This document shows, piece by piece, positions 5,300 through 61,201 of a stretch of DNA of 64,000 nucleotides. Numbering within the stretch: the stretch's first letter is position 1; the number at the start of each line of letters is the position of its first letter. The stretch lies in NCBI GenBank assembly GCA_976226885.1, contig OZ320313.1, forward strand, positions 164,424,001 to 164,488,000, given 5' to 3'. Position numbers and translations under genes: made by a program. This DNA comes from Iphione sp. A-MEVVRFRX5 (lineage: Eukaryota). Below the pieces are notes generated by a model. That model worked only from the letters and a program-made list of their open reading frames with translations. It did not search any database and was not told the DNA's origin.

Positions 5300-5690
5300 G
5301 TCCAACAGGTAAATCTGACAGATGCTAACAACAGAGTCCCCTTTCTTGCTCACAATGTCTTCCGTTCCTATGGATAGGCCTACACTTCCCATCCTATTGC
5401 TGGCAACAGTTTACGTGGAGAAAATTTCTCAGACATTGTGCCATGCAATTCTCCGTATCTTCAGGAAAAAGTAAACTAGTTTTTTTTGTCCACTGAGTGC
5501 CAGCGTATATCAAGACAGTCTGCCCTGCATTCCAGGGTGGAACGTTTTTGGGAACTGGCTATACAAAATCAGGATGCACTCATCTTTCCTAAAGATACTG
5601 TTCGACGTGATTTCACGCAGCAGCACCACCAACTTAAATGTGAGATTCCTCCGAGACAACAACAGGTGGTGTCCACTCCTATACTGCATT
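5300..5690 (-). mobile_element. Decayed DIRS-type tyrosine recombinase relic
   Basis: Minus-strand frames read LSRRNLTFKLVVLL...PKTFHPG and FPEDTENCMAQCLRNFL...LSIGT, matching the motif order of DIRS YR; interrupted by stops and frameshifts. Confidence 0.45.
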
Positions 5691-5920
5691 CAACATGAGC
5701 ATCCCAAGTTTCTGTAAATTAGGCTCTCATGGGAATACATGTACTGTTGATAAGGCTAGAATCAAAATGATCCCAATATATGAAAAATGCCAAGTGAAGT
5801 GCATACATGTTTATAGTAAAGGCATGAGTGGTACATGCCAATTCAACTGTGCAAGGAACAGTGTTAAGTTAATGGGACCAGAAGGTCAACCTTTAACCCT
5901 TTGCTTAGAGGGTTTTCCCT

Positions 5921-5995
5921 TTGGCTCAGATGGTTAAGTGTTGGTCTCTCTGGTCTCTCATGCTAAAAGTCTGGGGTTCAATTCTTGGTAGGTGC
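5921..5995 (+). mobile_element. tRNA-derived SINE head
   Basis: A box TGGCTCAGATGG (5922-5933) and B box GGTTCAATTC (5975-5984); no complete cloverleaf. Confidence 0.6.
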
Positions 5996-5999
5996 TAGC

Positions 6000-6700
6000 T
6001 CTCCAAAGACAGGAAGAGTCTTTGTAAATAAAAAGATTTCTTAGTAAAACGTAGATTTCTATGATTCCTATATGTATCAATAATGCAGAGTAAAGGGCTT
6101 AGCATGCCACATACTCTATGTGGCACAATGTATAATGAAGGTAGGTAATGTGAAAGTGTCATACTTGACGAAGAAGTGTTGTTCTGGGACTGATGTTTCC
6201 CATGGATTAAATTAGCTTTCCAACTTAGCCTAACACATACATTAGAAGCCAGTCCCTCTAAGGATATCAGTATCACTAAGGTATTCAACTTCTGACTTTT
6301 CCAAAACTACCACCAAGGAGAATGAGACGGGAATTAAAATACACTAATTCATACTTCGTGCAAAACACTGAAAATCTCTTTCTCCTCGAGGCAGGGTGGC
6401 AGCAAGGTAATCAACTTGAAGCAAATGAAAGTAAAAATGACTAAATGACTAAAAATAGTATGAATGTTACAAATGGCATGTTTCCACCAACGATATACCA
6501 GGGTACTGAGTGATGAATATCCTCGGGCAGCACCATAGTATGATCTCCTCTGCGAGGCACGTAGTAGTTGGTACGGGCGTTAATCTTTGTTCGGACATCA
6601 GAGATGACCAAACAAGAGCAATGAAATATGACTTGGATCTCTAGGGAATAGTCTTGAAAGAACAATAACGGCAAAACATACTTAATGTCACTGAGGTAAA
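6000..6700 (-). mobile_element. Possible highly decayed LINE RT remnant
   Basis: Fragments YGAARGYSSLSTLVY (GVPQGS-like) and LSWKANLI (thumb-like) only; weak. Confidence 0.3.
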
Positions 6701-8176
6701 AACGGTCGAAAGTTTGCAGTGGCAGTATGTGTGAGGTACATCAAGGAGGTATGGTTCTGGTCAGGAAATAAATTTACACTCTCCCCCTCTCTCTGTGTCT
6801 CTCTCCCTCCTCTGTCCCTTTCTCTTTCTCGCTTTCTCTCACCTCTCTCTTGTTCTCTCCCTCTTCCTCATCCCTTCCTCTNNNNNNNNNNNNNNNNNNN
6901 NNNNNNNNNNNNNNNNNNNNNNNNNNNNNNNNNNNNNNNNNNNNNNNNNNNNNNNNNNNNNNNNNNNNNNNNNNNNNNNNNNNNNNNNNNNNNNNNNNNN
7001 NNNNNNNNNNNNNACTAACAAAGCTTATAGTTTTTACTCAGATAAGGCGCACACTATCCTTTCACTATCAATGCAATGCTAAGGCTACTCTTTGCCCAAT
7101 GCAATTACACGAGGTACACGATCATACTGGTTTAAACCAAGGTATCACATATTTCTTGTAACGCTGTTGTAAAAAAAAGTTATTGGTAACTAGCTCTTCG
7201 TCAGAAGTGATGCATATACAATTTTCAATTCATCGCTAGGTCGGGGAGGAAGCGATACAGTGTAAATGTCTGAGAATTGGAGGACCTTTGTTCGACTCAA
7301 GAAAAGATGGGGTAAGAAGCGAGACAGGATAGGTTCCACTGTCCAGGGCACGAGAGAGACAGACTGACAGACAGAGAGAGACAAAAACATAGATGCAGAA
7401 TTTTGCTTCTGAGTGGAGACAATGAGAGAGTAATAGAGAGAGTAATAGAGAGAATGAGAGCATGAGAAAGAGAGAGGGTGAGAAAAAGAGAGGGTGAAAA
7501 AAAGAGAGGAAGAGAAAGATTGAAAGNNNNNNNNNNNNNNNNNNNNNNNNNNNNNNNNNNNNNNNNNNNNNNNNNNNNNNNNNNNNNNNNNNNNNNNNNN
7601 NNNNNNNNNNNNNNNNNNNNNNNNNNNNNNNNNNNNNNNNNNNNNNNNNNNNNNNNNNAGAAAATAGAGCGACAGCACAAAGACATAGTTGTGTGTTTGT
7701 ATGCGACTGTTAAATCGTCTGACATTATTGGTGACTGATGTAAAAGGCGGACAATGCCAGGAGTTTTGAATGTGCACTGCTCAGCAGTTGGATGGCGTAA
7801 TCGCACGCCACAGAAACATATATGGGCTCTCTTATATGGTATTCAAAGATTGGAAGTTTATCCTGAATGTCTCATTTTCTATGATGAGATGTGCTATTGC
7901 TGAAAAGATGACGGGAAAAGAGTGAAATTTATTAGTATGTGGAAAGATACACAAAATGCTGACTCGCCCATAGAGACCCGGAGAATTTCTCTCTATATGC
8001 ACTATGATTTCATATAAATTAATTACTTCTTAGCTGCTGAAGACCCTTTGTCAACAAAAAGAAATCACACTAGGATTGCAAGCCTCTGATACCAGCATCC
8101 TGACAACAATTATGCACCGTCTACAGTACCCTGACCCTGACCTGTAAATGCACCATAGTAATTAACGAATAGCCAG

Positions 8177-16235: not shown

Positions 16236-28713
<12,478 letters not shown>

Positions 28714-51682: not shown

Positions 51683-52812
51683 CGGCCTTATCACACCCCT
51701 CTACTGAGTGTGTTTATAACTACACCAAGAGAAAATAGTCCCAAATCCTTTCAGTAAAAATATTAGGAGGGTGTGGGTCCCCCCCCCCAACAGATATAAA
51801 AGTGTTTCAATAAAAATCCAAGAGGGGGGGTGTGGGGGGTCTCCCCCCACAATTTTGAACTAGCGATTTTACTTTAGGGTTAGGGTAAGGGTTAGGGTTA
51901 GGGTTAGCCACACATTCCATACACATTCATAAATAAATACTCACAGAGCTTTCCCCACAATTACTGGCAATGTTACTTAGGGTTGGGGTTAGGGTTAGGG
52001 TTAGGGATAGCCACACATTCCCTACACATTCATATATAAACACAGAGTTTCTCCCCTGACAATCCAAGGGGTCAAGGTCGCATTGAAAGAAGTCCGGTCG
52101 GGACCGATAAACTAGAATTTTACCTGAATGTTTGTATGGGATATATGTCGGTAACCGACATTGCACGTAGCCATCACTGGCATCAATCATAAGCCGACAT
52201 ATTTTCACAGCAACAAGTGCGACGTACAGGTCCACGGTGCTCTCGTTGGGGCTTTAACGATCTTGGTGGTGGTAGTTATTAGCTGTTCTAGCCCTTGGGC
52301 TGTGCACTTTCCCATAGGCATAAAAGACCACGCCCTGCTCATAGAGACAATGCATTTCATTGTTTTTTTGGTAAAATTCTAGTTTATCGGTCCCGACCGG
52401 ACTACTTTCAATGCTACCTTGACCCCTTGGATTGTCAGGGGAGAAACTCTGTGTTTATATATGAATGTGTAGGGAATGTGTGGCTATCCCTAACCCTAAC
52501 CCTAACCCCAACCCTAAGTAACATTGCCAGTAATTGTGGGGAAAGCTCTGTGAGTATTTATTTATGAATGTGTATGGAATGTGTGGCTAACCCTAACCCT
52601 AACCCTTACCCTAACCCTAAAGTAAAATCGCTAGTTCAAAATTGTGGGGGGAGACCCCCCACACCCCCCCTCTTGGATTTTTATTGAAACACTTTTATAT
52701 CTGTTGGGGGGGGGGGACCCACACCCTCCTAATATTTTTACTGAAAGGATTTGGGACTATTTTCTCTTGGTGTAGTTATAAACACACTCAGTAGAGGGGT
52801 GTGATAAGGCCG
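51683..52812. mobile_element. Fold-back element: ~442-bp near-perfect inverted arms with (TTAGGG)n cassettes around a 245-bp spacer
   Basis: Arm 51683-52124 is the reverse complement of 52370-52812 apart from a few substitutions and homopolymer length differences. Confidence 0.9.
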
Positions 52813-52967: not shown

Positions 52968-54264
52968 TTGAGTTTGAGTTTTATAGGCACACTTGCCTCG
53001 TTTATTGCTGAACAACATCGTACAATCATGTCATAGTGCGCTTTTTTTTTTTTTTTTTTTTTTTTTAACAATAAAGAACATTAACAATCTGGAGAAGGAT
53101 ATATTGGTGATGACAGGTGAGAGGATGGAAAATGTAAGAACAAATTAACCCCTAAATATAACAAGAGGGTAGGACAATTATTGTGATAGTGGAAGTAGTT
53201 ATGTATGACTACAAAGATTCGTATACTTTTTTCCATAAAACTGCAACCTTAGGTTTACATAGAAGAGAATACAGGTAAGCTGTGTGTCTTATATCATTTC
53301 TCCATGAATCCCAATGTAAATTACCAGAGTGATACCTTTTCTGTTTTAGTATATAAAACTTCGTACAAATAAGGAGTGCATTAAATAGAGGCTTGTAACG
53401 CATCGGTGTGAAGATACCAAAGAGTATTTCCGCCTCTGACAAGAAGGAGATATCAACGTGTGCAAACCATGACCACCAAGATATAATACTTTCCCATAAA
53501 CGCACAGTGTTGTCACAATATACAAAAAAGTGTTGGAGCGTGTCTGTTTCAGAACAGAAAGAACATTGTGGTGAGGAGGCTACCTTAATCTGGTGTAAAT
53601 AATGTTGACAAGGAATCAACCTGTGGATTAACCTATACTGAAAGGACTGATATTTGGTGGATGGAAGTACTGTAAAGGGTAACCTAAATACTCGTGACCA
53701 TTCAAATCCTTCAGCAATAGGAGTAACTCCAATAGTATCCCACTTCAGGATAGCTTTCGGTTGTACAGATTGCTCATGGATCAGAGCCCAATAAATATTT
53801 TTTGCCGTAAGTACACTAATATCATAGTCAGAGTCAAAGGTTGAAAAATATAAAGCCATTGGCATCAATGAACCAGAACTCACATTCAAAATGTTTATAT
53901 AGTATTCAGGGATTCTCTGACAAATGACTAGATAGTCAGCAGAGGTTAAATCCAAAGCATAAGTTGTATTTACTGCATTTAACGACCGAAATGATCCATC
54001 TAGATTACATACATGACCCACTAGGTAAAGACCCTTCTGTTTACATTGGTTTCGGAGTCGAGTAGAGATGACCCCAAGCATAAACTTGTTATTCCATAGA
54101 TCATCTGCCAAGATCGCGGAGGGAGTTTTTGCTTTAATCGTATGCATTTTAAACCAGAGGTTACATAATTCACGGTAATAAGGATGTTTAATACTTGAAA
54201 CTCTTACAACTCTCTTACTTCTGAAAAAGCTGTGTACATCTACAACCCCTAAGGCATATTGCAC
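52968..54264 (-). mobile_element. 5'-truncated L1/Tx1-type LINE insertion with poly(A), extra 3' segment and 14-bp TSD
   Basis: Direct repeat gagcgatattatag at 52954-52967 and 54265-54278; T25 at 53042-53066. Confidence 0.85.
53209..54264 (-). pseudogene. C-terminal part of LINE ORF2 (zf-RVT and CCHC), open for about 350 codons
   Basis: WSRVFRLPF...KYQSFQYRLIHRLIPC...CSFCSETDTLQHFFVYC...LWESI; lacks the EN and RT domains. Confidence 0.85.
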
Positions 54265-55043
54265 GAGCGATATTATAGGTAGGGACACGGACTAAGAATG
54301 TATCTCTAATTAAACTCGTTTTGAAACTGCTACAAAATTTGAGACATTTAACAAGTGGAATGTGAAGCAGCTGATAAGCATTTCTGTTATATATTCAAAG
54401 ATGTGAGCAGTGTAAACTCTTACCCGAGGTCTTTCGCGTCTCTGCTTCGACAATGTGATCCGGATAACAACAAATGCAGAAAGTGCTAGTAGTGAATGCG
54501 CCGTTCACGAAACACTCCTTTGGCTACACCCCTCCCGCGCGCCACCACTTACAAGTTACAGAGCTGGGTACCCAAAGAAAATTTGTCACATATTTTAACC
54601 TCTCTGTCGTAAAAATACAATCAGTTCAGCACTAAACCAGTAAACAATGCAAGAGGGTTTTCGCATTCAGTAATGTCTCTGTCGCATAATTCTTTTTTTT
54701 TAAAAGGCACTTGCCTGTTCTTTATTTCTGAGGAAGTTGACACGAAATAACAATACAGTGCCTGTTTTTTGTGTTTTTTTACACGAGTAAAAATAATACA
54801 TCAAGATTAGACACACTTAAGAGGTGGATGTACCCGCTTATAGATGTACTTAGGCCTATATATGGAGATCAGAGGGGAAAGCACTGCCCCCCCCCCTCCT
54901 TCCCCACCTACACCCATGGAATAAGTGTATTCCATGCTCCAACACTCGTATTGTTGTGTTTTGTTGTTCCCCCATTATTGTTTTTTCAGCAGCTTTGGTA
55001 TGATTCCAAAATGTCAATGGAACGTAACCTTGAATTATGACTA

Positions 55044-55282
55044 TGTATGACACTCTCAGGATATTGTTCGCCCCGATCGAAGAGACATAACGAACTGCTA
55101 TATTTTTAGAGATTTATTCCTTAACATGCAGGAAGTGAATGACAATGAAGGCTCCACCCGGCTCTTATTTATACATAAGTGTAACTCCGGGCGGAGCCTA
55201 ATGAGATCGGAAGAAATCCGGCACCACAACACTCCGCTCAGGGCGGAATACGTACGACACAATCCCCGGGTGGAGCCCAACA
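55044..55282 (-). repeat. Gypsy 3' LTR (239 bp), preceded by PPT AGAGGGGGCAG (55293-55283)
   Basis: On the minus strand it starts TGTTGG and ends ATACA, with TATAAATA near 55150 and AATAAA near 55115. Confidence 0.75.
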
Positions 55283-55386
55283 CTGCCCCCTCTAAGAAGG
55301 CTCAGTCCCTGAGCAACATGCAAAAATGTAACATGCAACAGAAGGTAACACCAAGAAAAAAAGGTTGCTAAACAGCTAGGGGACCT

Positions 55387-57730
55387 CTACTGGTCCCCAG
55401 TTGGCCTCTCTACAGAGACCTGGAATTCCTCGTCGAGGGATAAGTCCAACTGATAGCTAGTCTCCTGCATCTGAGCAGTCAGTTCAGATAACACCCATAC
55501 TGGGCGTACCCGGGGCTCCTTCCACCCGTGCCCTTGCAGCCACTCACTCGGGGACCCTGCTGCAGCTGGGTCTGTGGCGCGAAGGCGAAGCTGCACCCCC
55601 TGTCAGATCTGCACCAAGGTGCTGTTCGTTTGGGGAGTGACCGTCGCCGTCCCTCGTGCAGAGAGCAGCCGCCATCCGACAGGGGGGACCGAAAGGGGGG
55701 TGACCACCCAGGCCTGAGCCCAGCGAACTATCAGCCCGGGCACCTCTGTTGACTCCAGCCGCAGCTGTCGGCAGGCGACAGGCCTAGTACCAGCCCGTCT
55801 CACTAAGTCTCCAGCCGACCTTTGCCCTATCCCGGGGCGGAGAGGTCCAGCCGGGACCGGGGTGCTAGTGGCCAGGAGCGGAACTGACTGGTCTCACCAT
55901 AACAGTCCAGCCCTAAACCCTGGGCGTCATTCTACCATCATGGAATGGGTGGCCTCTCTTCCCGTAGGGGCGCCGGTCGACCCCTCTCTTTCCTCCTCTC
56001 GTCGTCCCGGGAGTGCCGGGGGGAAGACCTCCTGGTCCGCCGAGGTAGTGGACTGCACTTCCTCCTTCTCTCGTTGTCCCGGGAGTGCCGGGGGGAGGAC
56101 CTCCTGGTCTGGCGGAGGGGGAATCGGCTGCTCTGCCTCCTCATCTTATCGTCCCGGGGGTGCCGGGGGGAGGACCTCCAGGTCCGTCGGAGGAGGGGCC
56201 GGCTGCTCCCCCTCCTCCTCTCGTTGTCCTGGGAGAGCCGGGGGGGGGGAACCCCTTGGTCCACTGGCGGGGGAACCGACGGCTGCCCTTCCTTAGCCAA
56301 AGGAGCGACCTCTTGGTGCGACGGGGGGCCGGTTGGCCCCTCTCTTTCCTCCTCTCGTCGTCCTGGGAGTGCCGGGGGGAGGACCTCCTGGTCCGGCGGA
56401 GGGGGAACCGGCTGCTCCACCTCCTCATCTCGTCGTCCCAGGAGTGCCGGGGGGAGGACCTCCAGGTCCGTCAGAGGAGGGGCCGGCTGTTCCCCCTCCT
56501 CCTCTCATCATCCCGGGAGTGCCGGGGGGAGGACCTCCCGGTCCGTCGGAGGTAGAATCGGCTGCTCTGCCTCCTCGTCTCATCGTCCCGGGAGTGCCGG
56601 GGGGGTAATCTCCTGATCCATGGGAGGAGAGTCCGACTGCTGGCTCTCCTCCCCTCGTCGTCCCAGGAGTGCCGGGGGGATAACAGGTTTCAGTGCCCTT
56701 GTTGAGTCGCAGGTGCTGGGGCCAGGCTGTGGTTCCACCTCGCCCCGCCGACCAAGGGACACCGGGGGAACTCCGCCCTGGCTGGATTCCGCCAGCTCAC
56801 TCCGTCCCTGCCAGGGGGTGCCGAGGTCCAGCCATGGCTCTAACTCTGCCTCGAAGGCGGATGAACCCTCGCCGAGCTCCGCCAGTGTAGCTGCAGCCTC
56901 CTCCTCTGTAGGTAAATCCTCCTCTGGTTCTTCCTCGATGACTCCCCCGGTCATCTCGAGTCGAGCGTTACGTACCCGACCGTAAGTTCCTTCAGGACTA
57001 TGGCTCAACTCGGTGGCCAGGGTGCTGGAAGCGACCGTCTCTTCCTGGCCTCCGACTCCCTCATCGTCCGAGTCTGGATCGGACCCTATGACTACAATGT
57101 CACGGGGCTGCTCGGACCTCTCCACATTCTCCCAGCCCTCACCCAAGCGCTCGTCCAGTTCCTTCGCCGCAGTGCTATATGAGGAGGAACCTGCGGAGCC
57201 TGGGGTGGACTGGGGGGTAAAGCCCTGGCCTTTAATGCCTGACGTAACCAGGGCCCGGTGCAGCGGGGACATTGTCGACGAAGCAGCACCCTTCTTCGCT
57301 GGCGAAGGTAGGCTGGCAGGGGTAATAGGGCTGGTCTGCGGTTGGTACTTCCTCTTCCCCCTGGCCTCCTCTCTCATGGCGGCCAGGTCCCAGCCATGAT
57401 CAGGGGTAAGCGGGTCGTCCTCTTCCGGCGGTGACATCGTTCTGGCCCGTCCCCTCGCCAATCCCCTGACTCGATCCGCCCCGGGGGTAGAGGGAAGGGC
57501 CGGCACAATGGAGCGTGTGGAAGTAGAGGGGGACGGTCCCCATCACCAAATCCCTCGTCCAATCCCACGTAGGGGAGCCCCAGGGGACACGTCCAGTCCG
57601 TAGAGCTGAGCCTCGATGGAATCTGTGGATACAGGGGTGGCGGGGGTCCCTGATCCCCCAGGCGTGGACACCGTGGAGGAGACCTGGGCGCCCCTTCCCG
57701 TCCGAGGCCGAAGCTGGCGAGTCTCCACTA

Positions 57731-57761
<31 letters not shown>

Positions 57762-59112
57762 AGAATCCGAGTCCCCGGGTGGTAGGGCTCCGGCAGCAGC
57801 GGACGGCCCCGCAGGAGGGAGGTGGCCCAGCTTGGGCCGGGTGGGGAGGGTCTCCCCCTGGCTCATGGCCAACTCCTTGGTCCTCTCGTAGGCCTTGACT
57901 TTGCGTTGGCGCTGGTACTCCGCTTCCTTCTCGGGCGGCACGGGGATGATCTCCCTCTTAGTAAGGTCCATGTAGACCACGTCTACTGACTGACCCAGTT
58001 CCAGCGGTCGCTCAGCCTCCTGGGCGTGCTGCTTCTCCAGGTGCCGCCGGAAGTCATCCCGATGGCCAAAATGCGCCCCTCGGCAGCGAGGAACGGCATA
58101 TCCTTACGAACCCCTTCCTAGCATGCTTCTTCTTGTAGCACTTGAAGTTTGATGTGTTCTCGGTTGTGTAGCCGCAGATCCGACATAGGCGGGCCTCGTC
58201 CCGCGGCATCTTGACCTCCACCTGGGCTTCAGCAGGGCGGACTCCGGAGGCTTGGGCGAACTCCGGTAGGTTCCGACAGGGGTGACTAGCGGACTCCGGC
58301 AATCCAGGTGAGTTCCGTAAGGAACTCCCAGCGTGCTCCAGTAGCAGCGCGGTGCAGTTCCTGCCGTTGGACAGCGGATGATTTGGAACGTACTCCGGTG
58401 AAGCCCAGTAGAAACTCCGCTGACGAGGCAGAGCGCGGCGTTGAACAGTACGAACGGCCTCCTGCAGCGCCGCCTCCTTATATCCCCGAGCCCAGTACTC
58501 CGCCCACCTCTGATTGGCCCAGCGTTCCCGCGCCTGGCATTGATTGGTCGACGCTGAGCGGAGTGCGGCAATATTCCCGCCCGGAGCCAACTGTCGAGGC
58601 GGATTCCGCTGACTGCGGGGGAAATCCGGGTGGAGTCTAGGGCGGACTCCGCCGACCGTGCGCCTCTTCCAGCTTGGATGTCGCCGCTCTCCTAACTTCC
58701 TCCACAGGACCTGGACCAAATGGTTAGTGGCCTGGCGCCCATAACGCTGCTGCAATTTCCTCCGCGGTCCTAGCAGCCTTTTCATGGCTCTACAGAACCC
58801 TAGGACTGGACCGGCCAGCCCCCCCATCACGTGTGGCGGTCGCTGGAGGTAGAGGGGTTGGAGAGCTCGGCAGGTCCGGTCACTCAGGATACGAAGTTCC
58901 ATGGCCACCAAATCCACCCACCCTTGGGGAATCTGTACGACCGGAGAGGGCCACGGGGCAGGAGACAGAGCAGTTTGGAAGGGATGCGGCGGCGCCGTCC
59001 GGTTGGGTCTGGAACTCTGTCCTTGAGGCCGCCTGTACCAGCGGGGAGGGGGTACCGGAAATTGGTCCTGAACTCCTTCCTGGCCCCCTTGGTCCGGCTT
59101 CCCTTGCAGCAT
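55387..59112 (-). pseudogene. Large extra Gypsy ORF after pol: two C2H2-like zinc fingers, acidic/Pro-rich region, 24-25-aa repeats and a C-terminal globular segment
   Basis: ATG lies 6 nt after the pol stop. Track ORFs 58054-59112, 57543-57980, 56580-57506, 55938-56420, 55603-55803 and 55387-55596 chain together through TGA stops and two frameshifts. Confidence 0.7.
55980..56770 (-). repeat. 72-75-bp coding tandem repeat, about 9 units (EQPxPPPxDQEVLPPALPGRREEE)
   Basis: gtcccgggagtgccggggggaggacctcc at 56004, 56076, 56151, 56226, 56360, 56435, 56510, 56585 and 56660. Confidence 0.9.
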
Positions 59113-59118
59113 TCTAAC

Positions 59119-61201
59119 TCATCCGAGTACCCCCGCATCCTCGTTCTCTACCTGCCCCATGGCCTTCTTTAAGAGATCGGCGTGCACTACCCTGTGACGC
59201 TGTCCTCGCTTGATCCGGTAGACCACGGCGCTCAGCCTGGTTTGGACCTCCCAAGTTCCTTGCCAGCAGCTTTGCAGTTTAGGGGAACGTCCTTTCTTCT
59301 TTACTGGACTGTAGAGCCACACCCGATCTCCGACGTCGAACTCCTGGGCCCTAACTTTCTTATCGTACCAGTCCTTGTGACGCTCCGCGGCCTTCTGTAG
59401 GTGCCTCTGCACTGTCCGATGGGCTTCTACAAAACGGTGGTGGACCTCCTCTACGTATTCAGTCACCGACCAACGTTCCACCCTCGGGGATCCTACCATC
59501 AACTCAATGGGTAGGGTTGTCTCACGTTGCAGGGTGAGCCAGTTTGGAGAGAACCCCGTCGTACGGTGGGGGGTGGCTCAGTAGGCGGCGAGGACAAACG
59601 GAATCTTCTCGTCCCAGTCAGACTGATCCTCCTGCACGACTTTGGCCAGCATGCCGAGAAGGGTCCTGTTAAACCTCTCTACCACCCCGTCGCTCTGGGG
59701 GTGGTATGGGGTCGTCCGAGACCGCTGAATCCTAAGGAGCTGCAGCAGCTCCTGGACAACTGCTGCTTCAAAGTTTCTTCCTTGATCCGAGTGGAGAACC
59801 CAGGGGGGACCGAATCGGCAGATGATTTTTCGTAACAGAATCTGAGCCGTGGCCGTCACTGTTACTTCCTTGGCAGGGAAAGCCTCAGTCCACTTAGTAA
59901 AATGGTCCACCACTACAAGGATGTACTTGTTCCCCCTAGCCGTCTCGGGGAAAGGGCCACACACATCCACTGCCACAAACTCCAGGGAGCCGGAGCTACC
60001 CGAAGCTGCAATGGGGCCCGATGCCGCCGGACGGGGTCCTGTCTCTTCTGGCAGGGGAAGCACGCCCACCCCCACTGCTGGACATCACGGGCCAACCCGG
60101 GCCAACAGTACTTGCGCTGTAAGGCCCCTTCAGTCTTCTCGGGGCCAAGGTGTCCTCCCAGGGCACCGGCATGGACCTCCTGCCAGACGCGGAATCGATG
60201 TCCTTCAGGGACGTAGACCTGGTACCAGGTGGCCCCTTCCTCGGTCTCCCATCAGCGACACAAGAGGCCTCCTCTTACTTCCAACCTGGGCATCTCTCCT
60301 TTCAACCAACATTCCTCTCGTTCTTCTCCTCCACCTAGCAGGGGGATTGTTTCTCCGGACTCGAGAGCCTGCAGTATGGGCCCCGCCCTGACATCCTGCT
60401 TCTGGGCATAGCTCAGGGTGTCCTCTTCTGCCGGTACTACTGACACAGCCGCCACCTGTCCCAGCTCTTCCATCTCCATAGGCTCTCTCCCGCACTGTGG
60501 ACACTTCTGCCTCGAGAGACCATCCGCATTACCATGCTTCCTACCTGGTCAGTGAATAATCTCCAGATCGTAGCAATGTACCTCTTCTAGCCAGCGTGCG
60601 AGCTGGCCTTCTGGGGCCTTGAAGTGCCACAGCCAACGCCACGAGCTATGGTCTGTACGGATCACCAGCTTTTGGCCTCCCACGTACGAGCGGAACTTGC
60701 GTAGACCAAACACCACCACCAATAGCTCCTTCCTGGTCACGCAATAATTACGCTCCAGGCGAGAGAGGCTCCGGCTCGCGTAGGCCAAAACACATTCCCT
60801 CCCGCCTTGTTCCTGTGAGAGCACCGCCCCCAGCCCTGCAGCAGAGGCGTCAGTGTCCAATGTCATCTGTCCTTCCGGCCGGGGGTAGGCCAACACTGGA
60901 GCGGAGACAAGCTTTGTTTTTAAAGTGACGAATGCCTGCTGACAGTCCGGTGTCCAGCAATACTCTTTGCCTTTCTCCAACAACTCGTGTAAAGGGGCAG
61001 CCACCGCAGCGAATCCTTCGACGAAGCTACGGTAATAAGAGCAAAGGCCAACGAAACTCTGAAGCTCGGTGATGCAGCGGGGGACTGGCCAAGCTTGCAC
61101 AGACGCGATCTTCTCGGGGTCCAGTCCCACTCCTTCGGCAGACACCTGGTGTCCCAAATATGCCACCTTCTTCTGGAACAACTGGCACTTCTGTGGTTTA
61201 A
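59119..61201 (-). pseudogene. Gypsy pol (RT thumb, RNase H, HHCC and DDE integrase), disrupted
   Basis: KPQKC...YLGH, DTDAS, YCVTRKELL, RTDH, GGHLG, VAVDVCGP, HSDQG, YHPQSDGVVERFNRT. TGA stops at 60549, 60252 and 59578, plus two frameshifts. Confidence 0.95.

Follow-up and report, generated by a model that had tools for sequence, protein, structure and literature searches.

We analysed a 64,000-nucleotide (nt) stretch of the genome of Iphione sp. A-MEVVRFRX5 (contig OZ320313.1, positions 164,424,001 to 164,488,000; the whole stretch is hereafter called the window), whose minus strand carries a Gypsy element with RNase H and integrase domains at 61.2-59.1 kb (Pfam). Behind integrase the element has a long tail with a pair of C2H2 zinc fingers, and this tail is a real, selected, clade-wide feature. 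A first-pass annotation had described it in the window as a separate extra open reading frame (ORF); that ORF is the decayed view of a gene fused to Pol, with a likely promoter of its own. From the sequence, and by analogy with foamy-virus Tas, we lean towards the reading that the finger protein would be a self-encoded activator of the long terminal repeat (LTR), the leader and the internal promoter of the element, working as Tas does; that it would be a self-binding regulator, of whichever sign, appears probable.

The pol frame continues 1,250-1,430 residues beyond integrase, and in the mechanism that we propose its last 940-1,120 residues would also be made separately from the internal promoter. 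The separate product would be a two-finger transcription factor that binds GCGGAG-type repeats in the LTR, the leader and the internal promoter, and it would activate the element through its acidic, Pro-rich disordered body. Internal promoter, factor and LTR would form a feed-forward loop as in foamy viruses. The factor fused to Pol would be packaged with the particle, where the newly made DNA copy could be one of its targets.

The tail is read in frame with pol

The layout given in the first-pass annotation was found again on the minus strand: a TGA at 59121-59119, an ATG at 59112, and the RNase H and integrase region of a Gypsy element upstream. However, the TGA is damage of the window copy rather than the end of pol, the position being a sense codon in 32 of the 36 copies with letters there and a stop in four; a separate ORF opening 6 nt past it is wrong for the family, in which the tail lies in the pol frame. 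The idea that some sub-lineage genuinely ends its frame behind integrase was rejected: on a tree built from the pol part (one too-short row omitted) the four stop copies do not cluster, the stop state changing 4 times against a shuffled mean of 3.9.

The source genome has a size of 1.18 Gb. When it was searched at the DNA level for the finger region, 40 of 524 candidates were scored (the window copy and 39 others at 82-94% identity); in a protein search 150 of 2,927 were scored (83-100% identity), and 20 further copies were chosen for their long frames. Copy counts in the genome are lower bounds. Integrase and fingers share a single frame in all 20 long-frame copies, and the frame that had been followed across interruptions in the window is intact elsewhere, since eight natural copies read without interruption from protease to the end of the tail (2,531-2,633 codons). 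The LTR pairs of the eight copies with a full-length frame are 98.5-100% identical; judged by these sequences, the family has been active very recently. The stops and the two frameshifts reported for the window were located, the latter near 58094 and near 56240-56295, the former at 57545, 56582, 56510, 56507, 56148, 55929, 55896 and 55605. The frame ends at a TAG (55389-55387), about 90 nt ahead of the polypurine tract (55300-55283).

All 37 copies that could be compared retain the ATG at 59112, but the nearest sister family does not have it. By sequence criteria the ATG at 58209, adjoining finger 1, is the better-supported start, and in 32 of 43 copies no other ATG lies between the TATA box and this codon. 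In most relatives that have no fingers the protein stops at an R..R.P.W..DY-type motif; as a similar integrase-end motif occurs in the window copy about 65 residues beyond its premature stop, the tail was added behind the usual end of integrase. The extension at 58663..58950 lies upstream of the promoter and belongs to Pol only; it has a homologue at 48% in protein P0218. A gene in another frame or on the antisense strand was rejected, as stops interrupt these frames; only the antisense frame that shares third positions echoes the selection signal.

Selection and domains of the tail

Selection was estimated over the 40 copies as omega, for the tail segments outside the Pro/Glu repeat array and with CpG transitions omitted. 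Changes found in three or more copies, which descend from active elements, were set against changes confined to a single copy, which reflect decay. The finger pair proved as constrained as integrase (omega 0.09 vs 0.10), with 4 nonsynonymous and 29 synonymous shared changes compared with 32 and 21 single-copy ones (p=1e-5). Omega was 0.14-0.24 in the acidic and Ser/Thr/Pro body, 0.21 in the C-terminal 212 codons (p=2e-11) and 0.40 over the 303 codons from integrase to the fingers; three short linkers are unconstrained (0.77-0.90).

Both C2H2 fingers noticed in the first pass are present in the window copy, finger 1 without its first His and finger 2 split by a frameshift. Their Cys and His residues are kept among copies, all eight ligands in 32 of 39, and are invariant in 10 rows from seven families. 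Across ten rows at 27-84% identity the helix of finger 2 has D+3 in every one, and R-1 and R+6 in nine. Three sister loci score 28.4-35.7 bits for Pfam zf-C2H2, and the nearest solved structure is that of ZNF692 (2d9h, E=0.005). A host donor of the fingers was not found in searches that returned generic multi-finger proteins only.

Three blocks are common to the seven tails compared: the finger pair together with some 50 residues behind it (fewer in one family), a block of the form LD.RLG.[GS]W, and the C-terminal domain. The LD.RLG.[GS]W block occurs in six of the eight sister-family loci scanned and is missing in one branch; the hydrophobic-then-acidic stretch behind it may resemble a SUMO-interacting motif. 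The poly-Glu tract and the roughly nine Pro/Glu repeats were confirmed at the positions in Table 1, the array of the window copy holding a frameshift and stops. As for the C-terminal segment, described earlier as rich in Trp, this richness is decay, because just three Trp are common to other copies and families; these three are invariant in a domain predicted to be beta-rich. Its alignment gave no match in Pfam or PDB sequence searches, a fold search with its AlphaFold model gave no clear match (best Z 7.0), and a test for two copies of the domain scored 0.30 against a mark of 0.32. Two AlphaFold models of tail segments are of low confidence (mean predicted local distance difference test 46.7 and 46.4), and the ESM Atlas held no usable match for two tail segments. 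The absence of a membrane helix, as first noted, stands: the highest 19-residue hydropathy is 0.79 in an unbroken copy and 0.72-1.21 in seven tails, among which no env-type membrane anchor was found.

A probable internal promoter within the reading frame

Ahead of the fingers, two CCAAT boxes are followed by a TATA box 35 nt beyond the second, with the ATG of finger 1 about 250 nt downstream. Such a CCAAT-CCAAT-TATA arrangement ahead of a conserved ATG is, as read from sequence, likely an internal promoter. The second CCAAT is kept despite a Thr/Ala switch (22/21 copies), and four-fold sites vary less in the 450 nt before the fingers (43/90) than elsewhere (565/748; p=1.4e-7, 43 copies). Subfamilies at about 70% nucleotide identity retain the arrangement, and the distant homologue P0218 retains peptides that match the promoter stretch. 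Across loci, a pattern defined post hoc, CCAAT followed 25-75 nt on by TATAA[AG] before finger 1, was found in 6 of 14 (five of nine families), in two codon phases, and in none of 110 control windows. Conserved AG and GT sites were also scanned; no splice donor was outstanding (best 5/7 matches), and a T-rich AG about 90 nt ahead of the finger ATG in 38 of 42 copies is a candidate splice lead.

Motif arrays and the C2H2 code

The same stretch of the frame holds a cluster of [GC]CGGAG motifs, at 19 per kb compared with 2-3 per kb in pol and tail, and dipeptides that can be written xCG-GAG are so spelled in 8 of 9 cases inside the promoter stretch and 8 of 43 outside. In the LTR, CGGAGT is the most enriched 6-mer (5 vs 0.11 expected); any 6-mer reached five or more in 3 of 2,000 LTR shuffles. 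Counted per 200 nt along the copy at locus L070, the motif number rises to 4-9 in both LTRs, in the leader and the beginning of gag, in the internal promoter (5618-6217) and in an interval at 7618 that precedes the repeat array, and is 0-3 in the remaining intervals. The 3' LTR of the window has three intact motifs, or five with CpG-decayed forms included. One motif lies about 8 bp from the LTR tip; another sits downstream of the LTR TATA box but ahead of the likely start site. Motif positions in 48 LTRs are less variable than other sites (4/30 vs 79/151, p=9e-5), also with an alternative reference copy (8/35 vs 65/133, p=0.007).

The helices of the window family carry R-1, D+2, D+3 and R+6 in finger 2 and N+3 and R+6 in finger 1. 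Published C2H2 code tables give RSDDLVR as reading GCG, RSDNLVR as GAG and QSSNLVR as GAA (table 1 of PMC7317221 and a table of PMC5260015), and the finger pair is therefore predicted to read GCG-GAN. A role of the motif in an RNA hairpin was considered unlikely, as all 10 and all 6 copies in two sister LTRs are on one strand.

Sister families and controls

In the same genome, 40 further loci belong to eight other families with integrases 56-77% identical to that of the window family; all 40 have the finger pair, in frame with pol where the frame is unbroken. Predictions from the sister-family helices were fixed in advance, and 6-mers were then counted in the LTR plus 500 nt. Full predictions were matched in three of seven families and missed in four, with GCGGAG at 8 against 0.76 expected, 16 against 1.18 and 7 against 0.62 in the matching ones, of which the latter two have near-canonical helices and GCGGAG as their leading motif; a half match came from the family whose finger 1 is without N+3 and R+6, which has GCG-TCG (10-16 vs 1.2-2). 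A GCG-led hexamer is enriched in seven of the eight sister families, and for the Sp1-type core GGGCGG six of all nine families show little or no enrichment (0-4 vs 0-2.2 expected).

As controls we took 35 loci of 13 other LTR families from the same genome and scanned 12 of these families, none of which has such a finger pair. The densest GCG-led hexamer per 700 nt reaches 7-16 in all nine finger families and at most 4 in 11 of the 12 controls; the signal in the twelfth was traced to a flanking element of a finger family. In three sister families (loci L212, L230 and L208) the motif array at the gag start consists of tandem repeats within the gag reading frame, with 12-, 21- and 27-nt-type units, both coding and motif-bearing.

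Spread in other genomes

A set of 738 long proteins is related to the integrase; of the best 120, mostly at 42-46% identity, 16 have a C2H2 pattern in the tail. With the tail as query no protein of 693-2,207 residues was found, and a second search returned among its 19 matches one homologue without fingers, P0218. In a metagenome scan 79 sister-clade loci were kept, of which 17 with less than 900 nt downstream were dropped. Of the remaining 62, the sense strand encodes a finger in 36 and the antisense strand in none, and here the finger lies in a separate ORF. A Met stands 3-16 residues ahead of the first Cys in 21 of 27 distinct fingers, and of the 20 ORFs that are complete 15 have a length of 400-513 residues. 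Because these distant relatives have a separate ORF, the finger gene need not be part of integrase. Some have arrays of their own (CGGAAG in L105, 28 vs 0.9 expected; GCGGAC in L120, 12 vs 0.25, with a finger that has D+3), and many separate-ORF elements are without motif arrays.

Three finger-bearing lineages are each well supported but not grouped together on the tree, whereas a larger quick tree places all 17 finger rows within one 39-row group (support 92). A tentative reading, which we hold with less confidence than the activator, is that a widespread and so far undescribed "complex" Gypsy class of invertebrates captured a C2H2 factor and independently evolved a foamy-virus type of circuit, finger and motif changing together by family. 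Within it, and as tentatively, one lineage would have the finger gene as a third ORF of its own, whereas in three it would be joined to Pol, so that the particle would bring its activator to the new copy.

The Gypsy Pol C-termini of P0020, P0029 and P0048 end in an additional finger pair, presumably akin to the Ikaros/Hunchback dimerisation fingers and a possible capture of a host module. P0063, P0064, P0082, P0099, P0106 and P0118 carry other add-on Pfam families (PF00628, PF02037, PF02338, PF00385, PF12796), and the tail of P0089 looks macro-domain-like. In P0012, P0029, P0030, P0043 and P0048 a short Ser/Cys/Arg stretch followed by a Met stands before the finger region, past the integrase-end motif; at the DNA level this stretch could be a splice acceptor.

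Alternative explanations

Several points weigh against an activator that reads its own motif. The window-family motif was noticed before the code was read, such that the match alone is weak; GGGCGGAGT would also fit an Sp1 box, and tandem amplification inflates motif counts relative to shuffles. Among the advance predictions, the discriminating one was Gln-1, and it missed: two Gln-1 families miss GCGGAA and have GCGGCT, GCGGCA and some GCGGAG instead. The two other misses are GCCGGA in one family and GCGGAG where GAG-GAN was predicted. The three matching families form one clade (support 100/100), so their matches are not independent and GCGGAG in them may be simple inheritance. Finger families are richer in G+C (0.58-0.64) than controls (0.37-0.53). 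Finger 1 of the window family scores 22.1 bits against the Pfam zf-C2H2 cut-off of 25.2, and the linker between the fingers differs from the usual one. As regards the promoter, besides the post hoc definition of the cross-family pattern, this pattern is absent in four of nine families, and the CCAAT-TATA pair occurs in none of the distant separate-ORF elements scanned. Finally, no evidence distinguishes activation from repression.

The first-pass annotation had guessed at a DNA-binding regulator serving autoregulation, anti-silencing or targeting. Selection on the fingers, the retained ligands and the motif that matches the helices support a regulator, its binding being predicted; autoregulation fits best among the three roles, and targeting and lasting anti-methylation found no support.

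The alternative that we rank highest, although unlikely, is that host factors of the Sp/KLF, EGR or ETS type use the arrays in CpG-rich promoters while the fingers bind elsewhere or compete. CCAAT, GC box and TATA together make a common host promoter, four of the seven code predictions failed, and GGGCGG is enriched in the window family (8 vs 1.15) and two sisters. However, GCG-led arrays persist in five of the six families with little or no GGGCGG enrichment, 12 other LTR families of the same host are without such arrays, and finger 2 hardly varies at its DNA-contact residues.

Next in rank, and also improbable, is an anti-silencing factor that would remove or block CpG methylation over the element. 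It finds favour in dense CpG-bearing motif arrays, tandem repeats and variable peptide repeats, as in plant VANC (PMC5735166), and in copies that decay 3-5 times faster at CpG than at other sites, from which we take the copies to be methylated. Yet in 24 older copies CpG decay is the same in the cluster (0.064) as in pol (0.066; p=0.74), and it is no lower in the LTR or leader, an indirect comparison that brief or tissue-limited effects would escape.

Third comes a tail that acts solely within Pol and anchors the integration complex on target DNA or at the element's own DNA ends, a part played by chromodomains in other Gypsy lineages (PMC9289625). Tail and integrase do share a frame in each of the nine families of the genome and in 16 among the best 120 long relatives, and one motif is close to the LTR tip. 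Insertion sites are nevertheless AT-rich (ATAT in 19 of 35), 13.4 kb of flank contains three motifs, below host background, and the internal promoter signature and the third ORF of relatives suggest a product made without integrase. We consider an integrase accessory improbable. Least probable is an autorepressor with the same binding and the opposite sign, limiting its own expression through SUMO-linked co-repressors: the conserved stretch that presumably resembles a SUMO-interacting motif would suit it, as would the LTR motif placed past the TATA box and ahead of the likely start site. Against it stand the enhancer-like placing of most sites, upstream of TATA boxes, the acidic, Pro-rich body, and the abundance and recent activity of the family.

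Comparison with known systems

LTR retrotransposons are taken to rely on host factors for their transcription, and C2H2 fingers are known as a host weapon against retroelements. Self-made DNA-binding regulators are described in complex retroviruses and plant DNA transposons (PMC12789967, PMC5735166, bioRxiv 10.64898/2026.08.24.746577). In foamy viruses, Tas (Bel-1) is encoded by an accessory gene near the 3' LTR, with a promoter inside the upstream gene, and binds its own internal promoter and the LTR (PMC12789967); here the layout is alike and the binding predicted. Unlike a foamy virus, the element is a Gypsy without env, and its factor has C2H2 fingers and is in frame with pol; no homology to Tas/Bel-1 was found with Pfam, so that the likeness is one of working alone. 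The Oikopleura LTR retrotransposons Tor3b and Tor4b express a third gene from an internal promoter, whose start lies inside pol in Tor3b (PMC4402516). That gene is a membrane Env, whereas the tail of the window family has DNA-binding-type fingers and no membrane helix. VANC of VANDAL elements is an element-encoded protein with dense motif arrays of its own, family-specific motif change and peptide repeats (PMC5735166), and other DNA-transposon regulators are comparable to it (bioRxiv 10.64898/2026.08.24.746577); VANC however belongs to plant DNA transposons and has other folds, and no lasting protection from CpG decay was seen in the window family. Known add-ons, likewise fused behind a Gypsy-type integrase, are the chromodomain in Gypsy and OTU, Ulp1 and PHD in Ginger (PMC9289625, PMC2836005); the tail is far longer than these and has a C2H2 pair, motif arrays to match and the signature of its own promoter. 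Its ligand spacing and canonical recognition residues are shared with host C2H2 transcription factors; the tail differs from them in having just two fingers and an unusual linker.

A Gypsy-encoded C2H2 gene was not described in the full-text literature searched (subscription journals, Repbase, Dfam and GyDB being outside its scope), and PMC6431247, PMC8556966, PMC13524379 and bioRxiv 10.64898/2026.08.24.746577, searched by term, gave no mention of C2H2 or zinc fingers of this kind. The supplementary element sequences of PMC8556966 may include the finger clade, and repeat libraries may already note the fingers.

If the proposed circuit is true, the C2H2 fingers with which hosts fight retroelements have become the element's own, and a full promoter is written inside a reading frame. 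Code-readable fingers in nine diverged families of one genome would offer a direct test of escape from host control, as well as of finger-motif co-evolution. Host genes could come under the factor as well, given its 6-bp site and the hundreds of copies, and in annotation such copies will be mistaken for host zinc-finger genes or env-like ORFs.

Features of the window

By every feature tested in its sequence, the element is a Ty3/Gypsy (Metaviridae) retrotransposon. Pfam gives the pol order protease, reverse transcriptase, RNase H, integrase (at locus L030), and LTRs of the TG...CA form, a primer-binding site, a polypurine tract and a short target duplication are present. The primer-binding site presumably matches tRNA-Leu. 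A gag with a capsid-like region and a CCHC knuckle overlaps pol in a different frame; Pfam found no chromodomain behind integrase and no env family in the element. The nearest public integrases are 42-46% identical to that of the window family. The 5' LTR, about 3 kb past the window end, is about 95.5% identical to the 3' LTR.

Table 1. Features of the Gypsy element and its tail in the window, in window coordinates.
Feature	Position	Strand	Remarks
Target-site duplication ATAT	55061..55064		partner outside the window
3' LTR, 218 bp, TG...CA	55065..55282	minus	TATA box near 55168
Polypurine tract	55283..55300	minus	
C-terminal domain, about 120 residues	55387..55780	minus	conserved over 7 families compared; one stop here
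Pro/Glu repeat array, 75-nt (25-residue) units	55984..56680	minus	about 8-9 units (3.5 + 4.5); number varies between copies
Short conserved block LD.RLG.[GS]W, then hydrophobic-then-acidic stretch	57060..57165	minus	segment omega 0.14
Poly-Glu tract	57723..57761	minus	
Conserved post-finger block	57852..58025	minus	omega 0.14; strand-turn-strand then helix (low-confidence prediction)
C2H2 finger 2 (C-x4-C-x13-H-x4-H)	58026..58098	minus	helix R-1, D+3, R+6; predicted reading GCG
C2H2 finger 1 (C-x2-C-x12-H-x3-H)	58123..58185	minus	helix N+3, R+6; predicted reading GAN
Conserved ATG before finger 1, likely start of finger protein	58207..58209	minus	39/39 copies with letters
[GC]CGGAG motif cluster within the reading frame	58210..58780		11 intact; low synonymous variation
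TATA box of likely internal promoter	58477..58482	minus	TATAA in 42/43 copies
Two CCAAT boxes, 30 nt apart	58547-58543 and 58517-58513	minus	43/43 copies each
Integrase-end motif (R..R.P..W.D type) and basic, predicted-helical block	58663..58950	minus	omega 0.17
Premature stop of the window copy; pol end in the first-pass annotation	59119..59121	minus	
pol: end of reverse transcriptase, RNase H, integrase (H2C2, rve, SH3-like)	59122..61197	minus	stops and one frameshift here
piggyBac-type DNA transposon, about 2.9 kb, in pol at TTAA	61198..64000	plus	end just outside the window

The piggyBac-type transposon nested in pol (with about 80 nt beyond the window) has a TTAA duplication and terminal repeats, and its transposase gene is seemingly split by two introns. 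Elsewhere in the genome, loci L261-L274, L286 and L291-L295 belong to other Gypsy families longer than 10 kb, which may hold further extra genes. Loci L281-L284 form a young BEL/Pao family with LTRs strongly depleted in CpG (observed/expected 0.12), in contrast to the finger families (0.67-0.88 in pol). Beside the Gypsy element, the 3' end of a long interspersed element lies on the minus strand at 53209-54291 (zf-RVT match), with a poly-A tail near 53040. At 51683-52812 there is a near-perfect 1.1-kb inverted repeat, likely a young fold-back element, with arms 99-100% complementary and TTAGGG telomere-like runs inside; a 62-nt piece of it recurs at 18437.

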